Positions 16,801 through 32,000 of a stretch of 32,000 bases of DNA are shown piece by piece (within the stretch, counting starts at the first letter, position 1; every line of letters starts with the position of its first letter). Source of the stretch: Crocosphaera subtropica ATCC 51142 (lineage in GTDB: Bacteria; Cyanobacteriota; Cyanobacteriia; Cyanobacteriales; Microcystaceae); contig NC_010547.1 in assembly GCF_000017845.1 (NCBI RefSeq), positions 210,001-242,000 on the forward strand. Direction: 5' to 3'. Both the position numbers and the translations under genes were made by a program. The notes under the pieces are model-generated. The model was not told where the DNA came from, searched no databases, and worked only from the letters and a program-made list of their open reading frames with translations.

Positions 16801-16897
16801 GGGTGGTTTAAGGCTAAGTCGTTGCTTTTAAAATGCCCAATTTTTCTAGAATAGTTCACAGTTACAATAGAATGAAGTTTATTCAGTAACAAATTCC

Positions 16898-17161
16898 ATG
16901 CAAATCACGATTGAAATACCAGAAGACCTTGGTAATATTCTTGAAGTCAAATGGGGGAATCTCTCTGAACGTACCCTTGAGTCTTTAGCTGTGGAAGGAT
17001 ACCGTAGTGGGATATTAACCAGGGGACAAGTCAGGCAATTACTAAATCTTGCTTCTTTCTATGAAGTTGAACAATTCCTAAAAGACCGAGGGGCTGATTT
17101 ACTCTATAGTGAAGAAGATTTGGAACAAGATATTCAAATTGCCCACGAATTAACTAATTGA
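16898..17161 (+). CDS. UPF0175-family antitoxin-like protein, apparently orphan
   Basis: The 87-aa product ..LAVEGYRSGILTRGQVRQLLNLASFYEVEQFLKDRG.. matches my recollection of cyanobacterial UPF0175 proteins. These normally precede a DUF3368 PIN-like toxin; here only five codons follow. Confidence 0.55.
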   Translation: MQITIEIPEDLGNILEVKWGNLSERTLESLAVEGYRSGILTRGQVRQLLNLASFYEVEQFLKDRGADLLYSEEDLEQDIQIAHELTN

Positions 17162-17175
17162 CAGTGATCGTTTAA

Positions 17176-17613
17176 TTAGGTTACTAATTTAATCCAGCTA
17201 ATTTGATTTTTAACGGTATTATATAAACGTTTGTCTCCTGTATAAAAGTCACAATTTAGATGTTGTGCTAATGCTAGATAATGAGCATCATAAGAAGCAG
17301 ATAAATTAAACTGATTAGCTAATTCAAACGCAGTCTGATGGAAATTTTGTAATTCTTGATGTCCATAAAGAGTAATATTAAAGCTGAGGGCGTCTAGTAA
17401 AGCCTCTTTTGCTTGTTCTGTTGTAATTTGTCCTGCTTTACTCATACGATAAAGTGCGTTGGTTACTTCATAATAAAATAAAGTAGGGGCAACAACAGTT
17501 ATTTGATTGGCTTGCCATTCTTCCCATAAGGTAATCAAGGTAGAATTAGGAACTTGAGTATTAACTAAACGAACAATAAAGTTAGCATCAACACAGACTA
17601 AATGATTAGTCAT
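17176..17613 (-). CDS. vapC: PIN-domain ribonuclease toxin, VapC family
   Basis: The four PIN acidic positions are in context: VCVDANF, YYEVTNAL, SASYDAHYLALA, FYTGDKRL. The start overlaps the upstream antitoxin gene by 8 nt. Confidence 0.8.
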   Translation of the reverse strand: MTNHLVCVDANFIVRLVNTQVPNSTLITLWEEWQANQITVVAPTLFYYEVTNALYRMSKAGQITTEQAKEALLDALSFNITLYGHQELQNFHQTAFELANQFNLSASYDAHYLALAQHLNCDFYTGDKRLYNTVKNQISWIKLVT

Positions 17614-17887
17614 TTTCTTCCTCTTTAACAGTCTCAGGAAAACAAGCTTGCATTAATTCTTCACTACGTTCTTCTCGCATTTGATAAAAAATTTCATCAA
17701 TAGAAGGTTCTAGTGGTTTTCCTCCTCGTTGTTGACAAATCTTCTGATTTCGTTCGAGAATTCGCTTTTTAGTCGTTTCCCAATCTTGTTGGGGATGTAA
17801 TTCAGATTCGAGTAAGATTCGTTCTTCCTCAGATAAACTTTTAATAATTTGAGCTAGGGTTTTGACTAATTGAGTATTCATGGTCAC
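17606..17887 (-). CDS. VapB-type antitoxin
   Basis: A 93-aa acidic protein immediately upstream of vapC and overlapping it. Its N-terminal LxxIIKSLSEEER motif is shared with the antitoxin at 18330-18548. Confidence 0.65.
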   Translation of the reverse strand: MTMNTQLVKTLAQIIKSLSEEERILLESELHPQQDWETTKKRILERNQKICQQRGGKPLEPSIDEIFYQMREERSEELMQACFPETVKEEEND

Positions 17888-17915
17888 TTGTATTTATCCA
17901 CTATTTAAGACACTT

Positions 17916-17968
17916 CTAATATTCCATCATATCCCATGCAGCTAATACTAATCTTTGGGTACAATATT
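17916..17968 (-). pseudogene. Remnant copy of the last 16 codons plus stop of the methyltransferase gene
   Basis: The 53 nt match 19204-19256 at 48/53 positions without gaps. It translates as YCTQRLVLAAWDMMEY*, versus YRTQRLVLAAWDMMGY* at the true methyltransferase C-terminus. An in-frame TAA lies immediately upstream. Confidence 0.75.
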
Positions 17969-17985
17969 ACTTCTTTGGGTTTAAT

Positions 17986-18330
17986 TCAAAGTTGAAAAGT
18001 ATTTTTTAATCTATTATTCAAAGTTTGTAATAAACTTATATTTAACTCCCCGAGTTTTCTGGTTATTAAATTTCGTTCAATTGTTACTATCCTAGAAACT
18101 CTAACTTTAGAGGTCATTTTTAGTCCTGTCTTAGAAAATTCAGGATGTGTTGTCTCTATTAGAAATTCTTCAGCACCGAGATTATTAATATTTTGAGAAG
18201 AAATAAAACAAACTGTAATATCTATTCCCGACAAATCAACCCATAATACGACAGCAGGACGAAGTTTTGTTGTACTTAAATCGGTAAAAGGAAAGGGAAC
18301 TAAAACAATATCACCTTTTTTTAGAGACAT
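17986..18330 (-). CDS. mazF: MazF/PemK-family endoribonuclease toxin
   Basis: The N-terminus KKGDIVLVPFPFTDLSTTKLRPAVVL is the hallmark MazF/PemK/CcdB-fold start. The product is 114 aa. Its start shares one nucleotide with the upstream stop (TAATG). Confidence 0.8.
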   Translation of the reverse strand: MSLKKGDIVLVPFPFTDLSTTKLRPAVVLWVDLSGIDITVCFISSQNINNLGAEEFLIETTHPEFSKTGLKMTSKVRVSRIVTIERNLITRKLGELNISLLQTLNNRLKNTFQL

Positions 18331-18548
18331 TAAATAGGTTCTCCATCTTCTAGGGTATAAATATCTGGTTCATCTTTGAGAAAATCAAAAGAATGACTTT
18401 TTTGTGCCAAGTTCATAATATCCTGTGTTGTAACTAAAGAATCGTCAAAGAATAATTTTTGTTCAAAGATTTGGCGTTCTTCATCGGACAGTGATTGAAC
18501 GATTGTGATTAGGGAGTCAATTAATTTTTGATTCATGGTTAACTTCAC
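18330..18548 (-). CDS. Antitoxin partner of the MazF-like toxin
   Basis: A 72-aa acidic protein translationally coupled to the toxin gene. It carries the N-terminal LITIVQSLSDEER motif. Confidence 0.6.
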   Translation of the reverse strand: MKLTMNQKLIDSLITIVQSLSDEERQIFEQKLFFDDSLVTTQDIMNLAQKSHSFDFLKDEPDIYTLEDGEPI

Positions 18549-18586
18549 AGATTAAGTGTTCTAATATTTGATAATATCTCAAGCAG

Positions 18587-19036
18587 CTAAAAGCTTTCCC
18601 ATAAAAAAGGATAACTTTCAGGGTTATCAGTGTATTTTGCCTTCACTGGATTTTGTTTAATATATTCCCAAGTATTAAGAAACTGTTGACGATTTTTGAT
18701 TAATGTATCATAGCGTCCATCTTGCCAAACTTTGCCGATATGTTTCATTACTTTAGGAATTTGTTTAGAACTATAGCTTTTTATACTGTGTAAAAAACTA
18801 CCAATTGACCAATATTTATTATCTGATTTTTGATAGGGTTTAATTAATAGATGAACGTGATCTGACATAATCACAGCAGTATATAAATAATAGCGTTTGT
18901 CGTGAAAATATAGGCAAGCATTTAGAACAATTTTTCTCGCTTCATTATTTAATTCTAATCGCTCATAAGTGTTGAAGGTAATGAAATAAATTCCTCCTTG
19001 AATTTCTAATTTCGGCAATGGTTTTTTGTAGGGCAT
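18587..19036 (-). CDS. REP-associated tyrosine transposase (RAYT, IS200/Y1 HUH family)
   Basis: The HUH motif is SDHVHLLI, the catalytic-Tyr region is HSIKSYSSKQI, and the C-terminal YIKQNPVKA is present. At 149 aa it is a single domain. Palindromic repeats flank it on its upstream side. Confidence 0.75.
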   Translation of the reverse strand: MPYKKPLPKLEIQGGIYFITFNTYERLELNNEARKIVLNACLYFHDKRYYLYTAVIMSDHVHLLIKPYQKSDNKYWSIGSFLHSIKSYSSKQIPKVMKHIGKVWQDGRYDTLIKNRQQFLNTWEYIKQNPVKAKYTDNPESYPFLWESF

Positions 19037-19064
19037 AATGGTTTATAAATCAATATTTTTTTAG

Positions 19065-19200
19065 GAGTGCGAGCATCTTGCTCCCTAAACCTTCAATAAC
19101 TCCCTAAACCCTCAATAGCGAGGGAGAAGCTCACACCCCTTTTCTTGGGAATGGGAGCATCTTGCTCCCTAAACTTTAAACAGTGAGCGAGACGCTCACA
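19065..19200. repeat. Cluster of REP-like palindromes of the (G/T)GAGC-NNN-GCTC(C/A) family
   Basis: Copies are GCGAGCATCTTGCTCCCTAAAC (19069-19090), GGGAGCATCTTGCTCCCTAAAC (19153-19174) and GTGAGCGAGACGCTCAC (19183-19199). A hybrid copy lies near 19121-19135. A tandem CTCCCTAAACC-N-TCAATA pair lies at 19081-19118. Confidence 0.8.
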
Positions 19201-19203
19201 TTC

Positions 19204-22200
19204 CTAATATCCCATCATATCCCAAGCCGCTAAAACTAATCTTTGGGTACGATATTCGCCGTATTTCCTCATCTCATTATTCTTGAGAACTCGGAAAGTT
19301 TCAGAGGGAAAATCTTCGCCATAAACATCAGCAGGATCTAAAATATAGCGTAGTTCATCACGGGTTAAACCGTAAAGTTTGGCAAATTTAGCATCAAGTT
19401 CTGCTCTTAATATAGCCCGTCTATCTTCATCCCAAATAAAGGGTTCTCCACTGTATCCCATATCCTCCGCAAAGGGTTTCATATCATAAGCAGTGTAAAC
19501 TAATTCTAAGACTCGACTGCTGATAAATTCGATGTCTTCTTCTGTGTACCAGTCTGGGGGAATAACGGGGAGTTGTTTTACAATGAAGAAATTTAAAGAT
19601 GTTCCCCCCATCTTTTGTCTCACTACAAAGTCAAAACATATACTGTTAAGATAAGCATAAAAGCAGCTTAATAAATTAATATTACTTTCACGGCTTATTA
19701 ACAAAGGAGCTTTATTACTGATGGCTGTTTTAGGTAAAATGCTACTAATAAAAGTTCGTTCATCAGTTGATCTGCAAATATCTCTAAACCCTATTAACCA
19801 TTCCTTATCCCACTTTCCTGCTAACTTATTTTCCACCTCAATTTTATCAACCCAATAACGAGGTTGTACGGTGCGATCGCATTCCATTTTCTCTTCTAGT
19901 TTCAAGTCATGGGTATTACCTTGATCATCATAACTTGCCCAACGATGATCAAATTGATGAAACATCTTTGCTTCATATAAAGGCACTAATCCTTCTCCTG
20001 CTTCACTTTTAAATAAATGACTATCATTACTCATGTGAAACATTGCCATAAATGAAATACCCCAAGGATTATGACCTGTCGCTTGGTGCGGATAATCTCC
20101 GAGGGAACCTCGGAGTTCCGCATCCGCTTTTTCGTTTTCTAAAACAGGAACACGCTGATAAATTTTCTTAGTTAATTCTGCATCAGCTTTTGTCCGAAAA
20201 ACAGGACAAGTTAAAGTATTCGGATTCATTAACTTAATGTCTTGTGGTGATAATTGAAAGACTCTATTTTTATCTTCAATTTGTTTCGCTTGAGTTAGGA
20301 AAAAGGAAAAATTAGTATTTTGAGTTGCTTTACCGCTAATTCCTAATAAAGAAAATTTCATACGACTATCAACAGCAGAAAATAACTTTTCTCTATTCTC
20401 AAAGTCATAAAGACTACTCAAGTTTTCTTGTTGAATTAAATCACCGAAGAAATTTTGATAAGTCGCATCCGTTGCTATTCCAGTAGGAATAATGACCCCG
20501 ACTTGCCCATCAGAGTTAATTAATTTTCTAACTGTTTCAGCAAACACAGCATAAGTATTAATATCTCCTTTACTGGTTAATAAAAATCGTGCTGATTCTC
20601 TAATAAATTTACCCTGTGCATCAGCATCATGTTTCGCTTCTTCAAACGCTTGTAATAATGTAGGATTAGTGTGTGCTAATTGCTTAATTAACTTAGTTCT
20701 CGCTGCCTTATTTTTAGCTGTAGCGATCGCTTCATCTTTAGAAGCAAAGAATTCCTTTTCTTGCAACTTAATTCGTTCCCAAGGAGGATTACCCAATACA
20801 CAACTAAATCCACCTTCCTCAAACACTTCGGGAAATTCTAAACACCAATGAAAAAAGCGTTTTTCTTGCGCTAATTGATTAGCTGCTTTAACCACTGAAG
20901 TTGTCGTTTTATTCCCTTCTAATAATCGATGTAACGCTTCTGTTGTGGGAAGTAACTGTAAATTATTTTCTGTTAAGGGCATAAAAAAGGCTGCCGTCCA
21001 CAAATTACAAGCCGAATAATCACGCCACCATCCCTCATTTTTATCACTATGACGACTTAAATATTGTTCCTTTTTCAACTTAACATCATCGGTATTATTT
21101 TCAGGAATCTTCCCTAATGCTTGCCAATCTTGAGCATACTTTTCTAAGCTAATTTCTAAATTATCAAACAAAGATAATTGATGACTTTCAATATTTTTTC
21201 TTTCCTCTTTATTACGCTTTTTAAACGCAGTCGCCCATTTTTTTTCATCTCCCGTCACCGCTTTAAATGCACCATCAGGAATGCCTTCTTTTAACACAGA
21301 AATATCCAACACACCCACCAAAGAATTACCGCATTTAATACGATGATCCAAGAAATTTAAAGGATACCCTTTACAAAAACCTTCAATCCATAAAGCCACT
21401 TTACACAGATCCACACTCAAAGGATTATAATCTACCCCATAGATGCAATGCTGAATGACATCCCGTACCGCTTGACTCAAGGGTTCCGGGGATGGGTGAA
21501 CCTCTCCTGTGCGAATTCGGGCTAATTCCTTACCAATACGCCTTGCTGCTGCTAATAAAAAGTGTCCACTCCCACAAGCGGGATCACAAACTTTAATACT
21601 TAATAAAGCTGCTTCTTGCTGTTGTTGAAGACTCAGGGGTGGGAGCGTCTCGCTCCCTAGATTATCTTTGTTTGTGCCTAGATTATCTTTATTTTTCCCT
21701 TTTTGGGGATTAGCGAGCAGGATACTCGCACTACTGCTGCTGCGGCTGACTTCTGCCAATTTTTCGGCAATGACAGGTTCTAACGCAGACTTGATCAACT
21801 GTCCTACTAATTCAGGAGGAGTATAATAAGAGCCAGTGGTTTTGCGATCGCTTCCTGTCACCAATTTAAAGACATAAATTCCTTCATAAGTGACAATTTT
21901 GGGCGTAAAATCAAGCAAACTTTCATAAACACTGCCCAATTCTTCCACATCCAAGGCCGCATAATTGACCCGTCGTAACTGACCCCGATTCTCGTAGAGA
22001 GAAAGATGACGAAGGGCTAAGAGCAAGTCATGATTATCAATGGCATAACTATCCAACGTTTCTAAGGATTTTGAGCCAAATAAGTCCCCATTGAGAGGCG
22101 ATAACCCCAATAATTGACCGCGCCAACTCTCATCAAATAAACTAAACGTTACCCGTAACCCTTGCCAAATATCTTGAAACCCTTCCCGACGATAACTTTT

Positions 22201-23016
22201 ACGTTCCGCCAACGCCCTTAAACGATTAATACTGTAATATTCCGTGTAAATTCTTGCTTTATCAATATCTTCCCCGTCTAACAATAAATTACGAGATTCA
22301 GCCACCATTAAAAACAATAAACGGTAAATCATCAGTAATAATTGACGATAATAGTCTTGTTCCGATAACTCCCCTCTCATTACCGCTTCTCGTAACTCCT
22401 CATTTTGAGGATGTTGCAGAAACCCACTTCCCAATAACTTTAACGCTTCTTCGACTCCATCCCGTAGGCGATCGCGTACCCGTCCCCCTTGTTGCAAAGC
22501 CTCTTGATGATAGAATTCCAAGAGACAACTATCGACATCATCAATGCCATCTGGTAAACGAGTCCGGTGAAAAAGACGATAAAATAAGCCAAATTCCGCA
22601 AAATTTTCGTTATTAAAGATTTGCTCTAGATCAAACTCCACAAACGTTAAACGAGTCATCAAAGAACAATCTCGTAATAACCGCCACTGAAACCCATTGG
22701 TAACAATGCCCCATAAATGCTCTGTGCGGTTAAGATATTCTTGTAATAAGCCATGCGCTGACAGTCTGGGACGACCGGACGGGGAACGTTGTTCTAAGGA
22801 TAACTTACAGCCAATGACGTGCAGGGGAGGAGAGGGGTTAATGTCCTCAGAAGACGCTATTTCCTCGGCCCGATGGGAAATAGCAAAGGTTTGACCGTCA
22901 ATGACTTCTGCTTTGACTTGTAAAATCGGTTCATATCCCAACAGTTTCAGTAAAGGAACTGCCCAATATTCCCGTGTTTCGCTGGTTCCGGTCTCTTCTT
23001 CCCCGACTCGTTCCAA
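19204..23016 (-). CDS. Gamma-class N6-adenine DNA methyltransferase, Eco57I/DrmMI/PglX-like; main body, 5' end interrupted (likely pseudogene)
   Basis: The GSYYTPPELV motif, the SAM-binding motif DPACGSGHFLL (about 21559-21592) and the catalytic NPPW (20779-20790) are all present. The track start is a TTG with no Shine-Dalgarno. The frame stays open and protein-like upstream to 23181 with no start codon. Confidence 0.85.
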   Translation of the reverse strand: MERVGEEETGTSETREYWAVPLLKLLGYEPILQVKAEVIDGQTFAISHRAEEIASSEDINPSPPLHVIGCKLSLEQRSPSGRPRLSAHGLLQEYLNRTEHLWGIVTNGFQWRLLRDCSLMTRLTFVEFDLEQIFNNENFAEFGLFYRLFHRTRLPDGIDDVDSCLLEFYHQEALQQGGRVRDRLRDGVEEALKLLGSGFLQHPQNEELREAVMRGELSEQDYYRQLLLMIYRLLFLMVAESRNLLLDGEDIDKARIYTEYYSINRLRALAERKSYRREGFQDIWQGLRVTFSLFDESWRGQLLGLSPLNGDLFGSKSLETLDSYAIDNHDLLLALRHLSLYENRGQLRRVNYAALDVEELGSVYESLLDFTPKIVTYEGIYVFKLVTGSDRKTTGSYYTPPELVGQLIKSALEPVIAEKLAEVSRSSSSASILLANPQKGKNKDNLGTNKDNLGSETLPPLSLQQQQEAALLSIKVCDPACGSGHFLLAAARRIGKELARIRTGEVHPSPEPLSQAVRDVIQHCIYGVDYNPLSVDLCKVALWIEGFCKGYPLNFLDHRIKCGNSLVGVLDISVLKEGIPDGAFKAVTGDEKKWATAFKKRNKEERKNIESHQLSLFDNLEISLEKYAQDWQALGKIPENNTDDVKLKKEQYLSRHSDKNEGWWRDYSACNLWTAAFFMPLTENNLQLLPTTEALHRLLEGNKTTTSVVKAANQLAQEKRFFHWCLEFPEVFEEGGFSCVLGNPPWERIKLQEKEFFASKDEAIATAKNKAARTKLIKQLAHTNPTLLQAFEEAKHDADAQGKFIRESARFLLTSKGDINTYAVFAETVRKLINSDGQVGVIIPTGIATDATYQNFFGDLIQQENLSSLYDFENREKLFSAVDSRMKFSLLGISGKATQNTNFSFFLTQAKQIEDKNRVFQLSPQDIKLMNPNTLTCPVFRTKADAELTKKIYQRVPVLENEKADAELRGSLGDYPHQATGHNPWGISFMAMFHMSNDSHLFKSEAGEGLVPLYEAKMFHQFDHRWASYDDQGNTHDLKLEEKMECDRTVQPRYWVDKIEVENKLAGKWDKEWLIGFRDICRSTDERTFISSILPKTAISNKAPLLISRESNINLLSCFYAYLNSICFDFVVRQKMGGTSLNFFIVKQLPVIPPDWYTEEDIEFISSRVLELVYTAYDMKPFAEDMGYSGEPFIWDEDRRAILRAELDAKFAKLYGLTRDELRYILDPADVYGEDFPSETFRVLKNNEMRKYGEYRTQRLVLAAWDMMGY
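21643..21705. repeat. REP-like palindrome plus 21-bp tandem duplication embedded in frame in the methyltransferase
   Basis: The perfect palindrome GGGAGCGTCTCGCTCCC (21645-21661) is followed by CTAGATTATCTTT twice (21658-21670 and 21679-21691). It is translated as KNKDNLGTNKDNLGSETLPP. The layout (hairpin, then CCCTA(A/G)A.. duplicates) matches the intergenic copies at 19065-19200. Confidence 0.7.
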
Positions 23017-23124
23017 GCGACGTTGAAAAATCCGCCATTGATCCTTAGCTTCACCCCAAGCAAAGGCAATTTCATCCTCTAATTTAGTGGATTTTTCCAG
23101 CCCAAAATGAACATTATTTTGACC

Positions 23125-23313
23125 AAAGATTGGAGATTGCCGATTGGAGATTGGAGATTGAGTAAAAACAAGCCTTTGCTTTCAAGCATTGGTAAATCTA
23201 AAATCTATCCTCAAAAATCAACAATTAATCTAAAATCTACAATTTTTAATCCCAAGCCCCTGTCTTTTAAGCAGGGGTCAATCTGCAATCTTCCCTCTGT
23301 AATCTGCAATTGC
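23125..23313. mobile_element. 189-bp MITE-like non-autonomous insertion with a TTGACC target duplication, interrupting the methyltransferase 5' end
   Basis: The inverted ends are AGATTGGAGATTG (23127-23139) and CAATCTGCAATCT (23279-23291), 12/13 as reverse complements. Internal features are GATTGGA heptamers, AATCTAAAATCTA twice, and the hairpin CCCCTG-N9-CAGGGG (23257-23277). Direct TTGACC copies lie at 23119-23124 and 23314-23319. There is no coding capacity. Confidence 0.65.
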
Positions 23314-23403
23314 TTGACCTTTAATATCTCCTGATGCTAGTTCAGTGGTGAGATCAGAAGCAAGAAGATTTCCAGCAATACGGATAGCAGTAGCAGTGTT
23401 CAT
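23278..23403 (-). pseudogene. Detached N-terminal 41 codons of the methyltransferase
   Basis: ATG at 23403 opens MNTATAIRIAGNLLASDLTTELASGDIKGQAIADYRGKIAD*. It is in the same frame as the main ORF (387 nt = 129 codons apart). The last roughly 11 codons and the stop are supplied by the inserted element. Confidence 0.6.
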
Positions 23404-23445
23404 GGTAATAAAAAAAGATTCAGGGTTGAATAGAAACTAGGGAGT

Positions 23446-23526
23446 GTGAGCATCTTGCTCACTGAATTAGAAATATGAGCATCTTGCTCACTAAGAGGAG
23501 ATAATGAAGATGAGCATTTTGCTCAC
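23446..23526. repeat. Three REP-like 17-bp palindromes between the SNF2 and methyltransferase genes
   Basis: Copies are GTGAGCATCTTGCTCAC (23446-23462), ATGAGCATCTTGCTCAC (23475-23491) and ATGAGCATTTTGCTCAC (23510-23526). Each has 6-7-bp arms and a 3-nt loop. They belong to the same family as 19065-19200. Confidence 0.8.
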
Positions 23527-23550
23527 TGACAGAAAAAATGAGTTAAATTG

Positions 23551-26436
23551 TTATTCAGGTAGGAGAATATAAAGACCCAAAACATCCATCGGTAACTGAG
23601 GTTCAACCTTCCGGAAAGTCCCTTCCTTAGTGAACTTTCTGACACGACGATGAGAAGTTAATAAATTCTTAGCCCGTTCTTTGGCGATCGCCTCTAAACT
23701 AGGCATCAAATCCTCTAAACGGTTCAGGACTTTTTCAATCCATCGTTGCTTGTCTTCATAGTCCAAATCCCCAGTAGGAACAGTATTATCGAGTAAATTA
23801 AGGGTGTCAGCTTGGGATAACCATTGAGGGGCATTAGGGGTTCCGGTAAACCCTCTCACTAAACACTCTTCAGCTAATAAGGGTTGAGTATTTTTTCCGC
23901 CCAATAAATAGCGCAACCGCAATGAAAGAATGATGGTGGGTTTGGTGACAGCATCCGTTACCGTAACCCCACAACGAGAGGCGATAGGATCTTGCCCTTC
24001 TAAGGCTTCCTCGAACAAATAACGGGCTAATCCTTCGACTAAAGGATGATTCCGTCCCACATATTCAACTCCTTCCGAAACAGGGGTTGTAAAAGCAATT
24101 TTGCGGGGCTGGTTGCCAATAATAGGTTGTAAGCAGGGAGGAATTGTCTTTAACTCATATCCTTGTTTCTTTTTAATCAGGGAAGTTCCCAATTGATCAC
24201 AAGCATTTTTAACAAATCGCTCCACATCCTTCTCATTACCCAGAATTTCATCGGCTTCGGTTAATTCTTGTTGCACTTCTTCTGGTTTAATGGAACGTTG
24301 AGCAAAGCGAGTACGATTTTGTTTTTCTCGTTCTACTGCTTTATCCCAGTGATGATGAACTTCTTTGAGAGAAGCATCTTCTTGTAAGTCTTCAAATAAG
24401 CTTAATTGACGGGCTGTGACGGTATCAGAATGTTCAAATAGGGATTGAAAGACCGCTTCTTGTACCGTCGTGCTATCCATTGGTAACGGAACAGTAATTC
24501 CCAGACTGCGGTGAATTGTCACTGCTTTTCTGAGCAATACTTGTAAAATTGCCCCATCAACGGGATTATCTTGACCATACAAGAGAATACATTTAACATC
24601 AGGGTTAGCCTGTCCATAACGGTCAATTCTTCCCTCGCGTTGTTCTAATCGATTAGGGTTGAAGGGTAAATCGACATGGCAACAAGCATTAAAATGTTCT
24701 TGAAGGTTAATCCCCTCACTTAAACAGTCTGTGGCCACTAAAACCCGTTGAGAGTAGGATTTTAATTCATCTAGACGAATTTCCCGTTCATCCTCAGATA
24801 ATTCGCCTGTGATAGCAATAATCCGCACTTGGCTATTGCGTTGCTTCTCTAAAACTTCTTGCAACGCTTGAGCATAATAGTTAGCAGTGGCGATATAACG
24901 ACACCAAAGAATGGGGTTATAACCTTCTTCTAACAACTCCTTGACTAATTTAATGGTCTGTTGCAGTTTTTTATCTTTTTTTCCTGTGAGTTGTTCAGCA
25001 ACCTTAACAAAAGCCCTTAATTTGCGTTTTTCCCAGTCTTGATAGGCTTTTGTTCCCTCTTCAACCACTGCGGTTGGAACAATATCAACGGATTTTTCCT
25101 CTTCCGTTGCATCACAGACATAAGGAGACGCTAAGTGATCGTAATTGACTCCTAATTCTTCACTTAACTCACTGGTTAATTCCTTAGTATCAGCATCTTT
25201 TTTAACCTGTCTCGATAAGGTAGCGATCGCTGCTGCTGGAGACGACATCACACAACGAATAATAGCTAACGCTGACCAGTATCTTCCCCGTTTTTGAGCA
25301 TGAGTTAAACTATCATCAACCGATTGAACTAACCCTCTGGCAAAATCATAGACATCATCTAATAAGTCTCGATATTCTTTTGATAACTGGTAGGGATATT
25401 CTAATGCCTCACGTTTCGGAAAGGGCGTTTCTTCGTCCATCCAATTCTGTACATCAGCCCTTCGTCGTTGAATAAAGTGCTGTGCGAGATCAATGCGTTG
25501 CTGTTCACTGAGGGCATCTAATTGTAAATGACTAAAATCAGGGTTTAAAAAGCCCAAAATGGAGAGAAACGAGGCTTCGATCCCACTGTGAGGGGTAGCG
25601 GTTAGTAATATTAAATGTTGCTTGGGATTTTCGGCTAGTTTACTTACTAATTGATGGCGTTGTTGGGTTTTGCCTTCCTTTCCATTGGCCGCCGTATGAA
25701 CTTCATCTACAATCACTAAATCAGGACAATGGGTCAAAAAACTAGCACGACGGCGTTCTGACTTAGCATAATCAAGACTGACAATAATATGGCGATAATA
25801 ACTAAAGATATGGTGATCGCTTGACGGTAATTCTCTCTCTAATTTAGCCACCGTTCCGGAACGAATGACCACCGCATCAATGTTAAATTTTTGCTTTAAT
25901 TCTCGCTGCCATTGATCGCATAATTGAGGAGGACATAAGACCCCTATACGTCTAATTTCTCCTCTATCGAGTAGTTCACGGGCAATCAAAGCAGTTTCGA
26001 TGGTCTTCCCGATGCCTACGTCATCTGAAATTAATAGGCGAATAACTTCTTGCTTTAACGCCATCAATAAGGGAACTAACTGATAGGGACGAGGACGCAC
26101 CGATAAACGACCTAAACAACGAAATGGCCCTGCCCCACTGCGAAGACTCAAACGGGCTGCATCAAGGAGTAGTCGCCCTGCTTCATGATTGCGTAAATGA
26201 GTGCCTTGAGGATGGGGAAAGGTTGCTGGTTCTATCTTTTCTCCCAAGATTGTGTAGATTCCGCAAACTTGTTCTTCACTTCCTGATAAGGGACGTAAAC
26301 GAATAACCTCTTCCTGCTCGGCTGGTAAAACAACCCACTGCCGATTTCGACATGAAACAATAGACCCCGGTGTTGGTGGCGAAGTAACTACAGAGAGAGG
26401 AAGAACCTGATTTTGATTAGAAACGACAGCAATCAT
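23551..26436 (-). CDS. SNF2/RAD54-family helicase, DrmD-like
   Basis: 961 aa. Motifs are I DDVGIGKT, II DEVH (25697-25711), III LLTATPH and VI QREGRIDRYGQ. It is co-oriented directly upstream of the methyltransferase. Confidence 0.85.
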   Translation of the reverse strand: MIAVVSNQNQVLPLSVVTSPPTPGSIVSCRNRQWVVLPAEQEEVIRLRPLSGSEEQVCGIYTILGEKIEPATFPHPQGTHLRNHEAGRLLLDAARLSLRSGAGPFRCLGRLSVRPRPYQLVPLLMALKQEVIRLLISDDVGIGKTIETALIARELLDRGEIRRIGVLCPPQLCDQWQRELKQKFNIDAVVIRSGTVAKLERELPSSDHHIFSYYRHIIVSLDYAKSERRRASFLTHCPDLVIVDEVHTAANGKEGKTQQRHQLVSKLAENPKQHLILLTATPHSGIEASFLSILGFLNPDFSHLQLDALSEQQRIDLAQHFIQRRRADVQNWMDEETPFPKREALEYPYQLSKEYRDLLDDVYDFARGLVQSVDDSLTHAQKRGRYWSALAIIRCVMSSPAAAIATLSRQVKKDADTKELTSELSEELGVNYDHLASPYVCDATEEEKSVDIVPTAVVEEGTKAYQDWEKRKLRAFVKVAEQLTGKKDKKLQQTIKLVKELLEEGYNPILWCRYIATANYYAQALQEVLEKQRNSQVRIIAITGELSEDEREIRLDELKSYSQRVLVATDCLSEGINLQEHFNACCHVDLPFNPNRLEQREGRIDRYGQANPDVKCILLYGQDNPVDGAILQVLLRKAVTIHRSLGITVPLPMDSTTVQEAVFQSLFEHSDTVTARQLSLFEDLQEDASLKEVHHHWDKAVEREKQNRTRFAQRSIKPEEVQQELTEADEILGNEKDVERFVKNACDQLGTSLIKKKQGYELKTIPPCLQPIIGNQPRKIAFTTPVSEGVEYVGRNHPLVEGLARYLFEEALEGQDPIASRCGVTVTDAVTKPTIILSLRLRYLLGGKNTQPLLAEECLVRGFTGTPNAPQWLSQADTLNLLDNTVPTGDLDYEDKQRWIEKVLNRLEDLMPSLEAIAKERAKNLLTSHRRVRKFTKEGTFRKVEPQLPMDVLGLYILLPE

Positions 26437-26623: not shown

Positions 26624-27751
26624 TTAGTCAAGTTCAAACTCAACTTTAGGCTGACGAAAACGGAACCAATGACAGAGAAAATTCCCTTGTGAACAAGCAG
26701 CACCATCGGGGACATTAACCCCGAATATCAATCCCAAAAATAAGCCAATAACAACAATAAGCGTAATAGAGATACCTGAACCAAGCCAAAATGAAATTTC
26801 TTGGTGCATAACCCGACGAGATTTTAGTTTCTGCTCAATTTCCTCTTCTTTAAGTCTTTTGGTGTCTTCACGAACCTTAATAGCTCTTTCATTTTCTTGT
26901 ACAAAGACAATAAGTTGCTGAATAACCAATTGACGGGCAACATGAAATTCATATTCCTGGTTGCCAATAACGTCTTTGGGCATCACATTTTTGGTTATGG
27001 CAGCTTGGAACTGTTGTCTAAATTCTTTGCTTTTGACAATGTTAACTAAGTTTTGGCGAACTTTATCTAAGATATGGGTAGCAATTCTTTTTCGTTCAGC
27101 TTGGGTAACACTAGCAAGATCCTGGAGAATGGCTCTGGTAATCTGTTGAGAAAAATAGTCCAAATGCTTGTTAAGCACTTCAGTCGGAACTAAGCCGTTA
27201 AGATCGAGTTCTAACTCTTCAATCAAATCATCGCTAGAAAACTTAACCTTTGAGAGGTCAATGGTTGTTGTTTTCTGTTTAGTTGAGTTACTCTGACTAG
27301 ATGATGATTCTACCTTTGTCGAATTAGTTGACTTAACGACATTTCCTTGTGAAGAGTTTCCTGCATCCTCATCATCAACAGTAATGGTATCAGCTTGTAA
27401 GGCTAAAGATTGAGATTGAGTAGATTTCGGTTGTTGATTAGTCGTTTTTTTCTTAAGCCCTTGATCTTGTGATTGCTCTACTTCATCATCATCAATGGTA
27501 ATAGTGTCGGCCTCGATTTTCAACGACTGAGATTGACTTATTGGTTGATCATCAGCAACTGCTAGACCTAATGAAATTGCATCATTGAAATCTTTGTCCT
27601 CATGAAGCAGACAACAGACGGTTTCAAACTGTTTAATCTGCTTAGGGTCAATATTATGAGGATTTTCTATGTTTAACTCATCTAATATTGATGGCAGTTG
27701 GTCAAGTTCGATGGAATAGTTATTGGCGATGCTAGTTAGTTTCTCATTCAT
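26624..27751 (-). CDS. Hypothetical membrane-anchored protein, long paralogue of the 27807-28451 product
   Basis: The N-terminal (MNEKLTSIANNYSIELDQLPSILDEL..) and central (AERKRIATHIL..EFRQQFQAAITKNVMP) modules align with the neighbouring gene. There is an internal duplication, QSQSL(K/A)(I/L)(E/Q)ADTIT(I/V)DD(D/E). It also has a coiled-coil extension and a C-terminal TM helix (GISITLIVVIGLFLGLIFGV). Confidence 0.65.
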   Translation of the reverse strand: MNEKLTSIANNYSIELDQLPSILDELNIENPHNIDPKQIKQFETVCCLLHEDKDFNDAISLGLAVADDQPISQSQSLKIEADTITIDDDEVEQSQDQGLKKKTTNQQPKSTQSQSLALQADTITVDDEDAGNSSQGNVVKSTNSTKVESSSSQSNSTKQKTTTIDLSKVKFSSDDLIEELELDLNGLVPTEVLNKHLDYFSQQITRAILQDLASVTQAERKRIATHILDKVRQNLVNIVKSKEFRQQFQAAITKNVMPKDVIGNQEYEFHVARQLVIQQLIVFVQENERAIKVREDTKRLKEEEIEQKLKSRRVMHQEISFWLGSGISITLIVVIGLFLGLIFGVNVPDGAACSQGNFLCHWFRFRQPKVEFELD

Positions 27752-27806
27752 ATAGATATAGCTTATGCCCCACCCCGTAATTAGAGTGGGGTATAGAGTA
27801 GTTCAG

Positions 27807-28451
27807 TTAGTTTCCAGGGAGGGTGAATTGAATTTTAGGCATCCCTTCTAATAGATGAGGGGGAACAATATCCTCAGTGAAAATATCCTGAAATTGTTGT
27901 CTAACTTCAGGACTTTGAAGAGCTTGATCGAATCTTTGACGAGACAAAGCTAAAAACTGCGCGATGACTCGTTGTCGTTCGGCATAACCAACCATAGCTA
28001 AACTTTGGATCAAACCCTGGACTTGTTGCTCGGAAAGAATAGCAATTTGCTCATCAGTCATGCCAAGTTGTTTAAGATCCACTTTCGGCTTAGACTTGGC
28101 GGTTTGATCTCGATTTTGTCGTGGCTGTTCCTCTTGAGTTGGCTCAGAAGTCTTTTGTTCGATATCAGTTTCGTGGTTGTCTTCGCTTTGTTCAATGGTA
28201 GTGGTCTGTGGTTCAGGTTGAGGTAGAGAGTCATCGGAAGGAGTTTGATTAATAGCCTGATCGACCACAGAAGCGATCGCATCATCAAGGGTTTGTCCTT
28301 CTTCGATTGCCATACAAACATATTCAAAGCCTTCGAGTTGCTTATCAGTTAAATGCTCGACATCTTTAACCTTGAGTCCCTCAAGAATAGCGGGGATTTG
28401 GTCGAAAGCAACAGAATATTTAGCAGCGATGGTTTGAAGTTTATCGTTCAT
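27807..28451 (-). CDS. Hypothetical soluble protein, short paralogue of the 26624-27751 product
   Basis: 214 aa. It has the N-terminal module MNDKLQTIAAKYSVAFDQIPAILEGL.., an acidic Q/E/P/T-rich linker, and the C-terminal module AERQRVIAQFL..EVRQQFQDIFTEDIVP. Confidence 0.65.
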   Translation of the reverse strand: MNDKLQTIAAKYSVAFDQIPAILEGLKVKDVEHLTDKQLEGFEYVCMAIEEGQTLDDAIASVVDQAINQTPSDDSLPQPEPQTTTIEQSEDNHETDIEQKTSEPTQEEQPRQNRDQTAKSKPKVDLKQLGMTDEQIAILSEQQVQGLIQSLAMVGYAERQRVIAQFLALSRQRFDQALQSPEVRQQFQDIFTEDIVPPHLLEGMPKIQFTLPGN

Positions 28452-28517
28452 GATTCACTCTTTGTAAGTTAGTTGACAAATTAGTGAGGAGTAAAAGAGA
28501 AGAGTAATTATCAGTTG

Positions 28518-28901
28518 TTAGAGGTCGTCATCTTCGACATCGATGTATTCTTCGGGATCTAACTCAGCGTTAACATAAGTGGGGGGTAATTCTTTGATAG
28601 AAGTATCATGCCCGTTATGACCATTCGGAGAGATAGCCTCACTGAGATGTTCTTCGCAACGATTAAGGGCCATTTGCATCATGGACTCAAATTGATTACG
28701 AGAAAGCATAATTTCTCGTTCAACGTCTTGACGAGAATAACCCAGAGCAGCTAACCCCACCGGTGCGTACACACAAGAGAGCGCATTAATCAATCCGATT
28801 CTCAGTTCAGTTTCAGGAGATTTAAGATATTTAGTGGCCACGCCGGAGCGTTCAGATACACAAAAAGTGGTATCGATTTTGAAACGGATTCTTTTGGTCA
28901 T
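28518..28901 (-). CDS. Small DNA-binding adaptor candidate, ParR-like (ribbon-helix-helix start, acidic tail)
   Basis: It lies 6 nt downstream of the actin-like ATPase gene. The N-terminal KRIRFKIDT is beta-strand-like and is followed by helices. The C-terminal tail is strongly acidic (DPEEYIDVEDDDL). The assignment rests on architecture and position. Confidence 0.4.
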   Translation of the reverse strand: MTKRIRFKIDTTFCVSERSGVATKYLKSPETELRIGLINALSCVYAPVGLAALGYSRQDVEREIMLSRNQFESMMQMALNRCEEHLSEAISPNGHNGHDTSIKELPPTYVNAELDPEEYIDVEDDDL

Positions 28902-28907
28902 GGTGAA

Positions 28908-30038
28908 TTAACCCCCCGTTTGAACTAAAGTTTCTTTTTGAAGTTTTGCCACAAAGGTTTTGTAATAACTAAAACAGTCAGCAAAACGATGAGACAGTTG
29001 ACTCCTTGCCGATTCTTGAATATCAAACTTCTGGATAAATTCGTCCATTAGAGAAGTACACCATTCAAGTTGAACGCCTTTTAACTGCTTGAACAATTGA
29101 TTAAGTTCCTTGGAGAAATAATGAGCCGTTCCTCCACTAACTAAAATTTGCTCAACGTCAGCCAGAGATTTGAACTGATGTCGTCGATCGCTCCAATATT
29201 GGGATTTAGCGTCTTTAATGGCTTGTTGCAGTAGTTCTATTTCTTGCTCACTCTTAGTCTGGGTAAGTTGGGCTAACACCTTAGACTTAAGATTGGGGCC
29301 AGCCTCATAAATGGTTTTGGCAGCTAATAATTCATGAGTAATGGGGAAAGGGAGTTCTTGCAGAAAATCGTGCATTCCCGTTTCTGGTAAAGTTTGGGAT
29401 AACTTTAAGTTCATTTTTCCCTTGTAAAAATATAACCAGCTTGAGTCGCTATGACCAATGATGAGAACCCCCGTAGGTTTAAAGGATGACGAATGTTTGT
29501 AAATCCCGTAACCTTCTGGCTTACAGTCAATTTTCTTTAACTGAATATTGTTAACTGGTTGGCCATTGTAATTAAACCCCACAGTGGGTTGAAGCAATTC
29601 TCGTAACCAACTAGCTAATAATCGTCGGTCTTCAAATTCGTCCCAAGGAAGTAAGATCCCTAAGTCTAATTCCATCAATTCTTGTGGATCTACTTCCTGA
29701 GTGACAAGATATCCGAGAAATCCTAAGATTTTAGCCAATAGATTTTCACACTTACGATCGCTTACTAATAAAGGCCCCGGACGAGTAGCTGTTTCCCCTA
29801 CATCCCAATAAACAGGCTCTTTATCAGAGGGGTCAACATAAGAAACCACTCCGGATACTCCCCTAGCGTCTTCAGAAAATTCTAGTTGTGAGCGATAACT
29901 CCTTGAAGTTAATTGTCTAACCGATGGATTAACCACAAAATACTTTTCAACCACTTCAAAGGGATATTCCACCGAACGATAACGAGCAATAATCTTACTT
30001 CCACTCGTTCCGGCATCGAACGAAACAATAGTCCGCAT
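28908..30038 (-). CDS. Actin-fold (ASKHA) ATPase, divergent ParM/StbA-like plasmid segregation protein
   Basis: Phosphate-1 is SFDAGTSGSK, the adenosine motif is ILVSGGTAHYF, and phosphate-2 is divergent (LIIGHSDSSW). At 376 aa it heads a minus-strand operon next to the relaxase gene. Confidence 0.55.
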   Translation of the reverse strand: MRTIVSFDAGTSGSKIIARYRSVEYPFEVVEKYFVVNPSVRQLTSRSYRSQLEFSEDARGVSGVVSYVDPSDKEPVYWDVGETATRPGPLLVSDRKCENLLAKILGFLGYLVTQEVDPQELMELDLGILLPWDEFEDRRLLASWLRELLQPTVGFNYNGQPVNNIQLKKIDCKPEGYGIYKHSSSFKPTGVLIIGHSDSSWLYFYKGKMNLKLSQTLPETGMHDFLQELPFPITHELLAAKTIYEAGPNLKSKVLAQLTQTKSEQEIELLQQAIKDAKSQYWSDRRHQFKSLADVEQILVSGGTAHYFSKELNQLFKQLKGVQLEWCTSLMDEFIQKFDIQESARSQLSHRFADCFSYYKTFVAKLQKETLVQTGG

Positions 30039-30419: not shown

Positions 30420-32000
30420 ATGTTGACCATTACAACGATTAAGTCTGGTATCAGAGAGAAAGAAGAATATTACACACAAGATGAATCTTTAGAACAACAG
30501 CCATTACAACAACAGAATCAACCCCTCAATAGAAACAATAAATTAACTCAGGCGGTTTGGTATGGACAAGGAGCCTCTGAGTTGGGTTTATCAGGCCCGA
30601 TACAACAAGAGGATTTTAAAAGTGTGTTTTATGGTTTTCAACCGAACGCCGATGAAACGATTCGACGTAAAAATAATCGTTTTGGGACAGAGCGTTTAGG
30701 GGATGATTTAACCTTCTCTGCACCGAAGAGTGTATCGATCGCACTTCATGTTGGTAATGATCTTCGGATATTCGATGCCCATACCGATGCCGTCAAGGAA
30801 GTCTTAGATGAAGTGGAGAAACGATATGCCCAAACAAGAATCTCGAAGAAGGGGAATAGAGAGATCGTTAATACCAATAATTTGACCGTTGCCATGATTC
30901 CCCACCATACTTCGAGGGATGGAGATCCTCAATTACACACCCATGCGTTTGTTATGAATGGCACCAAAGGTCCTGATGGAAAATGGCGATCGCTGTACCA
31001 TGAGGGTATGAGTCATAGTCAATGGCTTGGCAGTCTCTACCGTCAGAAACTAGCCACGAAATTACAAGATATCGGTTACGAACTCAGAGAAACGAAAGAT
31101 AGCTTTGAATTAGCAGGGATTAATAAACAACAAATCCAAGGTTTCAGTAAACGATCACAACAAATAATCAAGAGTATTCAGAAACGAGGCTTAGAAGTTA
31201 CCCCATCGAATCGAGATGTGGCAACGTTGACCACTAGGAAGTCCAAACAGAGAACCGCTACTCTCCAAGCCTTTCAGACCCAATGGAAAGCAGAGTCCAT
31301 TAAGATGGGAATAAAAGTTCCCCAAGCTAAGACCTTGAACCCTTCATCGTATCTGGGTTATGGCAGTTCTCAAGAGGCATTAGATTCTGCGATCGCTAAT
31401 CTAGAACAGAAGCAAGTCTCCTTTAGCCGGGAGGACATCTACCGTGATTCTTTTAGTAGGATACAACGATTCGATATTGCCCAATTAGACCAAAGTATCA
31501 ATGGACATGACAAGTTATTAGGAATAGAAGATAATTTCACTACCCTCACTGCCATTAAGAATGAGAGTAACTTACGGCAACAATGGGATGAAGGACAACA
31601 CAGTGTTCAACCCTTATCCCATAATGAGATGAAAGAAATTGAAAATCTTAATCCTGGTCAAACAGAGGCTCTCAGACAAACCTTAGCTTCGGAGGATGCT
31701 TATCAAATCGTCCAGGGGATTCGGTTTAAGCCGTTTATTGGGGAACTGGTTAACCAACTTAAAGATAGTCAAATTAAGGTAGAAGTTTATTCCCCGACTG
31801 AAACTGGGGCTGTTACTCTACAGAAGGGATATAGCATTGATGCTGATACAGTGGACAACGCTGGTGATTCTGATAACTTTGGTAATCATCAATTATGGGT
31901 CATTGATGAAGCTGAAAGTCTTGACTTGAGCCAAATGAGGGATCTGCTTAAACGGGCTAATTCGGAACAAGCACGATTAGTATTAGTAGGGGGGAATAAC
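30420..32000 (+). CDS. MOBF-family conjugative relaxase (TrwC/TraI-like), 5' part; continues beyond the window
   Basis: GAGGAG lies 4 nt before the ATG at 30420, and the frame is open to the window end. The N-terminal Tyr pair is EKEEYYTQDE and the His triad is HHTSRDGDPQLHTHAFVMN. A helicase-type LNPGQTEAL..WVIDEAESL..ARLVLVGG follows. It is absent from the ORF track because it has no stop in the window. Confidence 0.9.
   Translation, partial: MLTITTIKSGIREKEEYYTQDESLEQQPLQQQNQPLNRNNKLTQAVWYGQGASELGLSGPIQQEDFKSVFYGFQPNADETIRRKNNRFGTERLGDDLTFSAPKSVSIALHVGNDLRIFDAHTDAVKEVLDEVEKRYAQTRISKKGNREIVNTNNLTVAMIPHHTSRDGDPQLHTHAFVMNGTKGPDGKWRSLYHEGMSHSQWLGSLYRQKLATKLQDIGYELRETKDSFELAGINKQQIQGFSKRSQQIIKSIQKRGLEVTPSNRDVATLTTRKSKQRTATLQAFQTQWKAESIKMGIKVPQAKTLNPSSYLGYGSSQEALDSAIANLEQKQVSFSREDIYRDSFSRIQRFDIAQLDQSINGHDKLLGIEDNFTTLTAIKNESNLRQQWDEGQHSVQPLSHNEMKEIENLNPGQTEALRQTLASEDAYQIVQGIRFKPFIGELVNQLKDSQIKVEVYSPTETGAVTLQKGYSIDADTVDNAGDSDNFGNHQLWVIDEAESLDLSQMRDLLKRANSEQARLVLVGGNN

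Follow-up and report, generated by a model that had tools for sequence, protein, structure and literature searches.

The gene cce_5003 is annotated in GenBank as a normal protein, and the question raised by this locus is whether it is complete or is the larger remnant of a methyltransferase gene that was split near its 5' end by a small mobile element. It lies on a 429,701-bp contig, which we take to be the linear chromosome of Crocosphaera subtropica (Cyanothece) ATCC 51142, and a 32,000-nt stretch of this contig was analyzed (hereafter the window, to which all positions refer; Table 1). A preliminary description had proposed that a MITE-like block of 189 bp interrupts the gene and that its precise excision restores one long reading frame.

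The 1270-codon ORF corresponds exactly to ACB54349.1 (cce_5003), for which GenBank gives the TTG at 23016 as the start. As had been described, a 41-codon ORF on the minus strand, from the ATG at 23403 to the TGA at 23278–23280, was found in the frame of the 1270-codon ORF, and its peptide up to the first stop reads MNTATAIRIAGNLLASDLTTELASGDIKGQAIADYRGKIAD. The 5' piece of the gene as it stands thus continues into the element before the TGA is reached. Four in-frame stops lie between the two gene pieces, the last of which begins at 23184. The first in-frame start past these stops is the TTG at 23016 (residue 65 of the reconstruction), which is preceded by GGCGGATTTTTCAACGTCGC and has no SD sequence, confirming that the sole start near the beginning of the main ORF is a TTG of this kind; the earliest in-frame ATG after the stops is at 22659 (residue 184). 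The sequence TTGACC occurs at 23119–23124 and 23314–23319, with no further copy in 23051–23450. Deletion of 23125–23319 (195 bp) produced a single ORF of 1334 codons with the terminal stop only and a junction reading ...AAAGGTCAAAATAAT..., which reproduces the joining proposed for removal of the element plus one TTGACC.

Table 1. Positions of the gene pieces, the inserted element and the neighboring genes in the window
Feature	Position	Strand	Basis
DEAD/DEAH helicase with MZB (DUF1998), 1781 aa, intact	11455–16800	-	61% identity to the 1789-aa Planktothrix partner, colinear, alignment shown to approximately residue 1480
Methyltransferase 3' piece, codons 31–1334 and stop	19204–23118	-	cce_5003; Pfam and PADLOC matches
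Downstream flanking GTCA, second target copy	23120–23123	-	Family flanks
Inserted element proper, 191 bp, A...G, non-coding on the gene strand	23124–23314	-	17 complete family copies aligned with flanks
Right heptamer array (CAATCTN), in inverse orientation to the left one	23124–23162	-	Repeat comparison
Second stem-loop, degenerate here; left-type module in direct orientation	23173–23192	-	Family comparison, folding
Left stem-loop CCCCTGCTTAAAAGACAGGGG, framed by GATTGA...CTTG	23257–23277	-	RNA folding, covariation
Left array of GATTGNA-type heptamers	23278–23313	-	Repeat comparison, family alignment
Methyltransferase 5' piece, codons 1–30 (MNTATAIRIAGNLLASDLTTELASGDIKGQ)	23314–23403	-	N-terminus colinear with homologues; G29 and Q30 invariant (54 sequences)
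Upstream flanking GTCA, within the Gly29–Gln30 codons GGT CAA, target tetranucleotide	23315–23318	-	Family flanks
SNF2 helicase, DrmD/DpdE-like, 961 aa, intact, directly upstream	23551–26436	-	65% identity, full length, to the Planktothrix partner

The reconstructed protein was compared with its homologues. A search with its first 439 residues returned 908 relatives, mostly cyanobacterial N6 methylases with 60–73% identity, whose N-termini follow the pattern MxTxTxxQIEGNLIxxDLTxELxxGxxKGQxxxDFGLxKxxKLEDEIA. The reconstruction, ...GDIKGQ/NNVHFGLEKSTKLEDEIA (KGQ/NNVHFGL, with the slash at the junction), aligned with these N-termini without a gap at the junction. G29, Q30, and F35 were invariant across an alignment of 54 sequences, and the junction sits directly after the invariant Gly29–Gln30 pair. 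Since both residues are invariant and the alignment is gapless, the GGTCAA of the Gly–Gln codons was sequence of the target gene. The insert unit was accordingly placed at 195 bp (191 + 4 bp), the sole length compatible with a gapless protein alignment. The intact 1346-aa methylase of Planktothrix agardhii plasmid p4 aligned with the reconstruction from end to end (1–1346 to 1–1334, 64% identity). The colinear N-terminus that the preliminary description had called for was therefore found, and the homologues carry an equivalent of the 41-codon segment rather than starting near LERVGEEE. The exact 1334-aa protein was absent from a collection of 15 billion proteins, and no intact allele was found: the closest homologue of the N-terminus was 73% identical, and none of the homologues of the N-terminal 439 aa exceeded 76% identity.

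The methyltransferase matched Eco57I, N6_Mtase, and MmeI_Mtase in Pfam and DrmMI and type IIG in PADLOC, and its catalytic motifs were located at approximately 530–830 of the reconstruction. A PDB search with the single methyltransferase sequence gave no matches, and a profile search of the PDB reached only the methyltransferase domain of MmeI. A fold search with the N-terminal model (439 aa) gave weak matches to type IIG/IIL enzymes (DrdV, E = 0.03; BpuSI, E = 0.8).

The block described at 23125–23313 was present, but the element proper, as delimited by its relatives, is 191 bp and not 189 bp long. All three frames of the gene's strand are closed in it, with 2 to 5 stops per frame and four in the gene's own frame. 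One frame is open on the opposite strand, which is not general across the family, and a protein search with it returned two metagenomic matches only. Inverted arms pair 23126–23139 with 23279–23292 (14 nt, 93%) and, over a greater length, 23129–23161 with 23278–23310 (33 nt, 79%). The outermost 4–6 bases of the element are not inverted, and the inverted arrays lie just inside the ends; the inverted ends claimed earlier thus hold for the arms and fail for the extreme tips. AATCTAAAATCTA and AGATTGGAGATTG each occur twice in the element. The other internal features reported before, namely the duplicated 13-mer, the heptamers, the in-frame stops, and the hairpin at 23257–23277, were all present.

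As RNA, this hairpin was predicted to fold with −11.5 kcal/mol (z = −2.07). The sequence of the left stem-loop varies across the family while its pairing is preserved: 85% of cells are paired, and both sides were changed in four of the six pairs. The observed covariation score was reached in 0 of 500 shuffles, and controls slid along the alignment were at most 53% paired. A terminator composed of the second stem-loop and a T-run was considered and rejected because it is weak here (−5.8 kcal/mol, z = −0.33). A terminator scan flagged REP-like palindromes only and not the element stem-loop, and Rfam gave no match for the element.

The block falls into a repeat family that is dispersed among cyanobacteria, with full-length relatives (73–87% identity) in plasmids and genomes of Nostoc, in Trichormus, in MAGs of Crocosphaera, and on many metagenome contigs. 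BLASTN against plasmids yielded 13 records, including full-length relatives on five Nostoc plasmids: two of Nostoc sp. UHCC 0870 (80 and 75% identity) and those of TCL26-01, C052, and N. flagelliforme; plasmids of Crocosphaera or Cyanothece gave no match in this search. A genome scan with an internal 38-nt pattern, run on a collection of one genome per species that did not return the window's own copy and thus lacks ATCC 51142, detected 22 loci, many of which lie at contig ends. They belong to Nostoc, Trichormus, cyanobacterium SU3, and two MAGs of Crocosphaera, and one Crocosphaera MAG carried at least seven of them. The nearest complete copies, 87% identical over the full length, came from the Crocosphaera MAGs and cyanobacterium SU3. 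Scanning metagenomes for the left end gave 116 stretches. The copies are dispersed at unrelated sites, and their flanks differ. The window itself holds one family copy only; the repeated copies anticipated for the block were found in related cyanobacteria outside the host, on plasmids and in genomes and metagenomes. Together with the colinear reconstruction, this family membership upholds the earlier proposal that a MITE-like block splits the 5' end of the methyltransferase gene.

The family has a common layout. On the left, GTCA is followed by A, two variable bases, and several GATTGNA heptamers in an array; next comes a stem-loop that is rich in GC and framed by GATTGA...CTTG; and on the right an inverted array of CAATCTN heptamers ends with ...G, followed by GTCA. 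Long forms contain a second array-plus-stem-loop module in direct orientation, and short forms of 107 nt consist of a single array–hairpin module.

Several variants of this layout were observed. A left end of GTCAA-NN and GATTGNA heptamers also heads a wider set of elements in metagenome contigs, whose stem-loops are of many kinds but all lie within a GATTGA(C)...CTTG frame (e.g., stretches L042, L046, L066, L047, L078, and L088). Some copies of this wider set lie in GC-rich contigs that look non-cyanobacterial by composition alone, and in two GC-rich contigs (L051 and L076) the element lies within another palindrome and has near-perfect inverted ends, GTCAACCGATTGC / GCAATCGGTTGA. In some family copies (L005, approximately 260–300; L014; L015), the left heptamer array contains a nested insert of about 29 nt that reads AGCGTAGCGTTAGCGACGTAGGAGCGTCT or a variant of it, which is reminiscent of the very small dispersed repeats of heterocystous cyanobacteria. 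On plasmid unnamed1 of Nostoc sp. UHCC 0870 (L001, 301–495), a family copy lies inside the CDS of the CyRepA1 replication protein, and its bottom strand is read through without a stop, adding 66 codons. A paralogous CyRepA1 gene on another plasmid of that strain was examined as an empty site and discarded, since it diverges to the left of the insertion point. The idea of a translatable MITE, similar to the RPEs of Rickettsia, was also abandoned because the bottom-strand frame is open only in some copies and the lengths are not consistently multiples of three.

The flanks were compared across copies that had been detected by the internal pattern, independently of their ends. On the left, GTCA was present in all 24 copies, in one orientation relative to the element; on the right, it was present in 14 of 17, with GTCT in one of the remaining copies and GTAA in two. 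The bases beyond GTCA vary between copies. Since only GTCA is common to the flanks, the family-wide repeat is 4 bp long; in the window, the conserved bases with which the element begins (A) and ends (G) happen to lengthen the match to 6 bp. The TTGACC duplication described earlier is therefore present at both sites as sequence, while the flanking repeat shared by the family is the orientation-specific GTCA. A true 4-bp duplication and a GTCA borne by the element's end cannot be separated by sequence alone.

A non-palindromic target, a fixed orientation, and non-inverted tips are unusual for a DDE transposon. The element could instead be moved by a strand- and sequence-specific enzyme, such as an IS200/IS605-type or RAYT-type HUH Y1 protein or a recombinase with a GTCA core, in which case one GTCA would belong to the element and excision would be seamless. 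We consider this unlikely, although a real candidate. The constant orientation of GTCA at the left and right flanks is in its favor, as are the element tips, ACTGATTG... and ...CAATCTTCTCG, which are not inverted repeats of each other, and the covarying stem-loop, a feature of elements recognized as single-stranded DNA. Moreover, the methyltransferase stop is followed, at a distance of 170 bp, by a Y1 (RAYT) gene, and no transposase-bearing relative with these ends was found in approximately 140 loci. The long inverted heptamer arrays are nevertheless typical of MITEs. The stem-loops of the element lie 37–60 nt from its ends, whereas those of IS608-type ends lie much nearer. The four bases 5' of the stem-loops also differ (TTGA versus TTTA, TTAT, or TTTT) despite GTCA at both flanks, and the neighboring RAYT has its own, unrelated REP palindromes. 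An autonomous parent with matching ends was sought in a limited search of the same approximately 140 loci, which revealed no end pair at a transposase-sized interval; long-distance "right ends" that had appeared as parent-element candidates were regex artefacts. Because of the distant stem-loops, the differing 5' bases, and the lack of a parent element, the classification as a MITE whose parent was not found was retained.

A broader and more speculative idea, which we regard as improbable, is that GTCAA, a GATTGNA array, a stem-loop with CTTG, an inverted array, and GGTCA define a large cyanobacterial superfamily moved by a strand- and GTCA-specific non-DDE mechanism, for instance an HUH Y1 enzyme or a recombinase. 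With seamless excision, the insertion in cce_5003 would then serve as a reversible off-switch for the modification gene of a DISARM-like system.

With a probability of roughly 85%, we conclude that a 191-bp MITE-like insertion split an N6-adenine methyltransferase gene of about 1334 codons, that it did so recently, and that the result is most likely a null allele. On this reading, a non-autonomous element of 191 bp, which now sits in codon 31, inserted at GTCA inside the Gly29–Gln30 codons (GGTCAA) and left GTCA on either side. Because the gene is read along the stop-rich strand of the element, a ribosome that starts at the true ATG terminates after 41 codons. For the other 1304 codons, neither an ATG nor a GTG is available close to the beginning, and a ribosome-binding site is lacking. 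On these grounds, cce_5003 is most likely a null allele. The insertion looks recent because the flanking repeats are perfect and both pieces form one clean open frame. Identity to the Planktothrix partners was 65% for the SNF2 helicase, 64% for the methyltransferase, and 61% for the DEAD/DEAH helicase; that the methyltransferase is no more diverged than the helicases, together with the perfect flanks, also speaks for recency. Another possibility is that the 3' piece is still expressed and under selection. Were the element lost between the two 6-bp direct repeats, the gene would be restored exactly, and the palindromic arrays of the element may favor such loss, to judge from how palindromic inserts between repeats are known to behave. 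The sequence thus shows the insertion, its family membership, the colinear reconstruction, and the intact neighboring genes, and from these we infer loss of function, recency, and the possibility of reversion by element loss. Intact chromosome copies may also exist beside the assembled one, as the host is possibly polyploid.

The insertion would be less damaging if translation restarted at the TTG at 23016 or downstream and gave an active enzyme lacking at least the 64 N-terminal residues, which is the truncated product annotated in GenBank. In favor of this, the 1270-codon ORF is uninterrupted throughout, the catalytic motifs are encoded well past the lost segment, and the divergence of the methyltransferase from Planktothrix does not exceed that of its neighbors. 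SD sequences are, besides, often absent from cyanobacterial genes. However, the sole nearby start is a TTG without SD that lies inside a helix, and a restart would need internal initiation on the mRNA downstream of the stops and of a stable hairpin. The segment that would be lost (residues 1–64) contains the invariant G29, Q30, and F35 and ten near-invariant residues, and it was predicted by AlphaFold to form a confidently structured beta strand and three helices, with mean pLDDT values between 67 and 98 for ten-residue blocks. Furthermore, none of the 60 N-termini listed belonged to a homologue starting at the position of the 1270-aa protein, and the shorter ones were fragments, some from contig ends. 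An active restart product is thus doubtful, and the null allele remains the preferred reading.

It is hardly credible that the block arose as an error of sequencing or assembly, or that it belongs to the normal gene of this lineage: two independent short-read assemblies with an identical upstream helicase gene do stop before the element (at 23387 and 23437), but the block is a genuine family member with exact family ends placed precisely at GTCA, it contains four in-frame stops, no homologue examined has extra sequence at this position, and an assembly error would not yield flanks specific to the target within a pair of codons. These two Logan assemblies (SRR26036489 and SRR26036488), which share the identical SNF2 helicase gene, stop 68 and 118 nt before the element is reached, in one case within a REP-like cluster, and they neither confirm nor contradict the insertion.

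The methyltransferase gene is the middle member of a three-gene set whose order, SNF2 helicase, methyltransferase, and DEAD/MZB helicase, is conserved in Planktothrix. On plasmid p4 of Planktothrix agardhii (stretch L030, 1852–15142), the 1346-aa methylase likewise has an SNF2 helicase on one side and a 1789-aa DEAD/DEAH helicase on the other. Both helicases of the window are full length relative to these counterparts, in agreement with the earlier statement that the helicase genes remain intact. The conserved set spans 11455–26436 of the window, with a methyltransferase of about 1340 aa and an MZB (DUF1998) helicase of about 1785 aa. A literature search on cce_5001 to cce_5004 found no mention of these genes.

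Other repeats and mobile genes were noted around the set. REP-like palindromes of the form (A/G)G(T/G)GAGCAAGATGCTC(A/C) form two clusters of three, at 23447–23527 and 19070–19198, which bracket the methyltransferase gene (six matches against 0.07 expected). They are probably the GTAG-type REPs that have been reported for Cyanothece strains (PMC3733652). The cluster on the 3' side lies directly upstream of the RAYT gene cce_5002 (18587–19036), which encodes a Y1 protein matching NCBIfam REP_Tyr_transpos with 99 bits (cut-off, 80). A 53-bp stretch of the methyltransferase 3' end, including the stop codon, is directly repeated (17916–17968 and 19204–19256; 48/53 identical). The two copies bracket a cassette of approximately 1.25 kb, in which the RAYT gene and the REP cluster are accompanied by a small ORF and a gene for a MazF/PemK toxin (17986–18330). 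This cassette looks like a second insertion event at the methyltransferase gene, and the equivalent gap in Planktothrix holds a different cargo, an Uma2 endonuclease. At the other side of the set, a few kilobases away, a TrwC-type relaxase gene (1053 aa) extends from approximately 30420 to 32000 and runs off the end of the window (it is also seen in stretch L006, 2856–6017). Four ORFs without a family match (26624–30038) lie between the defence locus and the relaxase gene. The nearby relaxase suggests that this region belongs to a mobile segment, either integrated or derived from a plasmid.

These results bear on the annotation of a widely used model cyanobacterium, in which cce_5003 is recorded as an ordinary 1270-aa protein and the insertion is hidden. 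The gene is better recorded as one interrupted by a mobile element, with a true product of about 1334 aa. The locus would then represent a natural knock-out of the modification gene in a DISARM-like three-gene system in which both helicases are intact; either this system tolerates the loss of methylation or the locus is silent. In addition, the orientation-specific GTCA flanks and the covarying stem-loop provide a concrete lead to a cyanobacterial mobilizing enzyme.

In its gene content, the three-gene set resembles class 1 DISARM. The SNF2 helicase matches NCBIfam DISARM_DrmD, the large N6-adenine methyltransferase has DrmMI as its best PADLOC match, the DUF1998/MZB domain is present on a helicase, and the same gene order is found in Planktothrix. 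In contrast to class 1 DISARM, the ORFs that were scanned yielded no PLD (DrmC) gene, and a single protein of 1781 aa combines the helicase and DUF1998 domains. The DrmD match reached 367 bits against an NCBIfam cut-off of 610, PADLOC scores the SNF2 helicase higher as DpdE, and the large helicase scores best as Druantia DruE.

The element was also compared with PATEs and REPINs, which derive from IS200/IS605 and depend on Y1 HUH enzymes. It shares with them a fixed tetranucleotide in a fixed orientation, conserved stem-loops, and the lack of a true terminal inverted repeat at the tips, and a RAYT gene and REP-like palindromes occur in the same locus. Unlike them, it has long inverted arrays and stem-loops far from its ends, and the guide-like bases 5' of its two stem-loops differ even though both flanks are GTCA. 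The local REP palindromes (GGGAGCAAGATGCTCCC type) are unrelated to the element stem-loop, and no Y1 enzyme is linked to the family.

The closest resemblance in overall design is to cyanobacterial MITEs, which are abundant in this phylum (PMC11602168). In Anabaena sp. 90, where the 147 MITEs are of type II and have no matching IS, 15 of them lie in ORFs, and pseudogenes have been created in this way (PMC3542288). Nezha, as well as MITEa–e of Anabaena PCC 7120, are further cyanobacterial MITEs, and MITEs inactivate mcy genes in Anabaena, both as cited in PMC3184786 and PMC10969869. Like these elements, which are small, non-coding, and 100–300 bp long, the insertion described here (191 bp) combines inverted repeats, of which group 1 of Anabaena sp. 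90 has three sets, with internal stem-loops. Direct repeats of short length at the flanks, many dispersed copies, and pseudogenes formed by landing in ORFs are shared as well, and the absence of a matching IS corresponds to the type II MITEs of Anabaena sp. 90. The in-frame, read-through family copy in the Nostoc CyRepA1 gene is similar to the ORF fusions known from PCC 7120. By published descriptions only, the strictly oriented GTCA flanks, the tandem-heptamer ends, and the non-inverted tips set the present element apart. Since pseudogenes made by MITEs are already known in cyanobacteria, the insertion in cce_5003 is unsurprising in kind, although solid.
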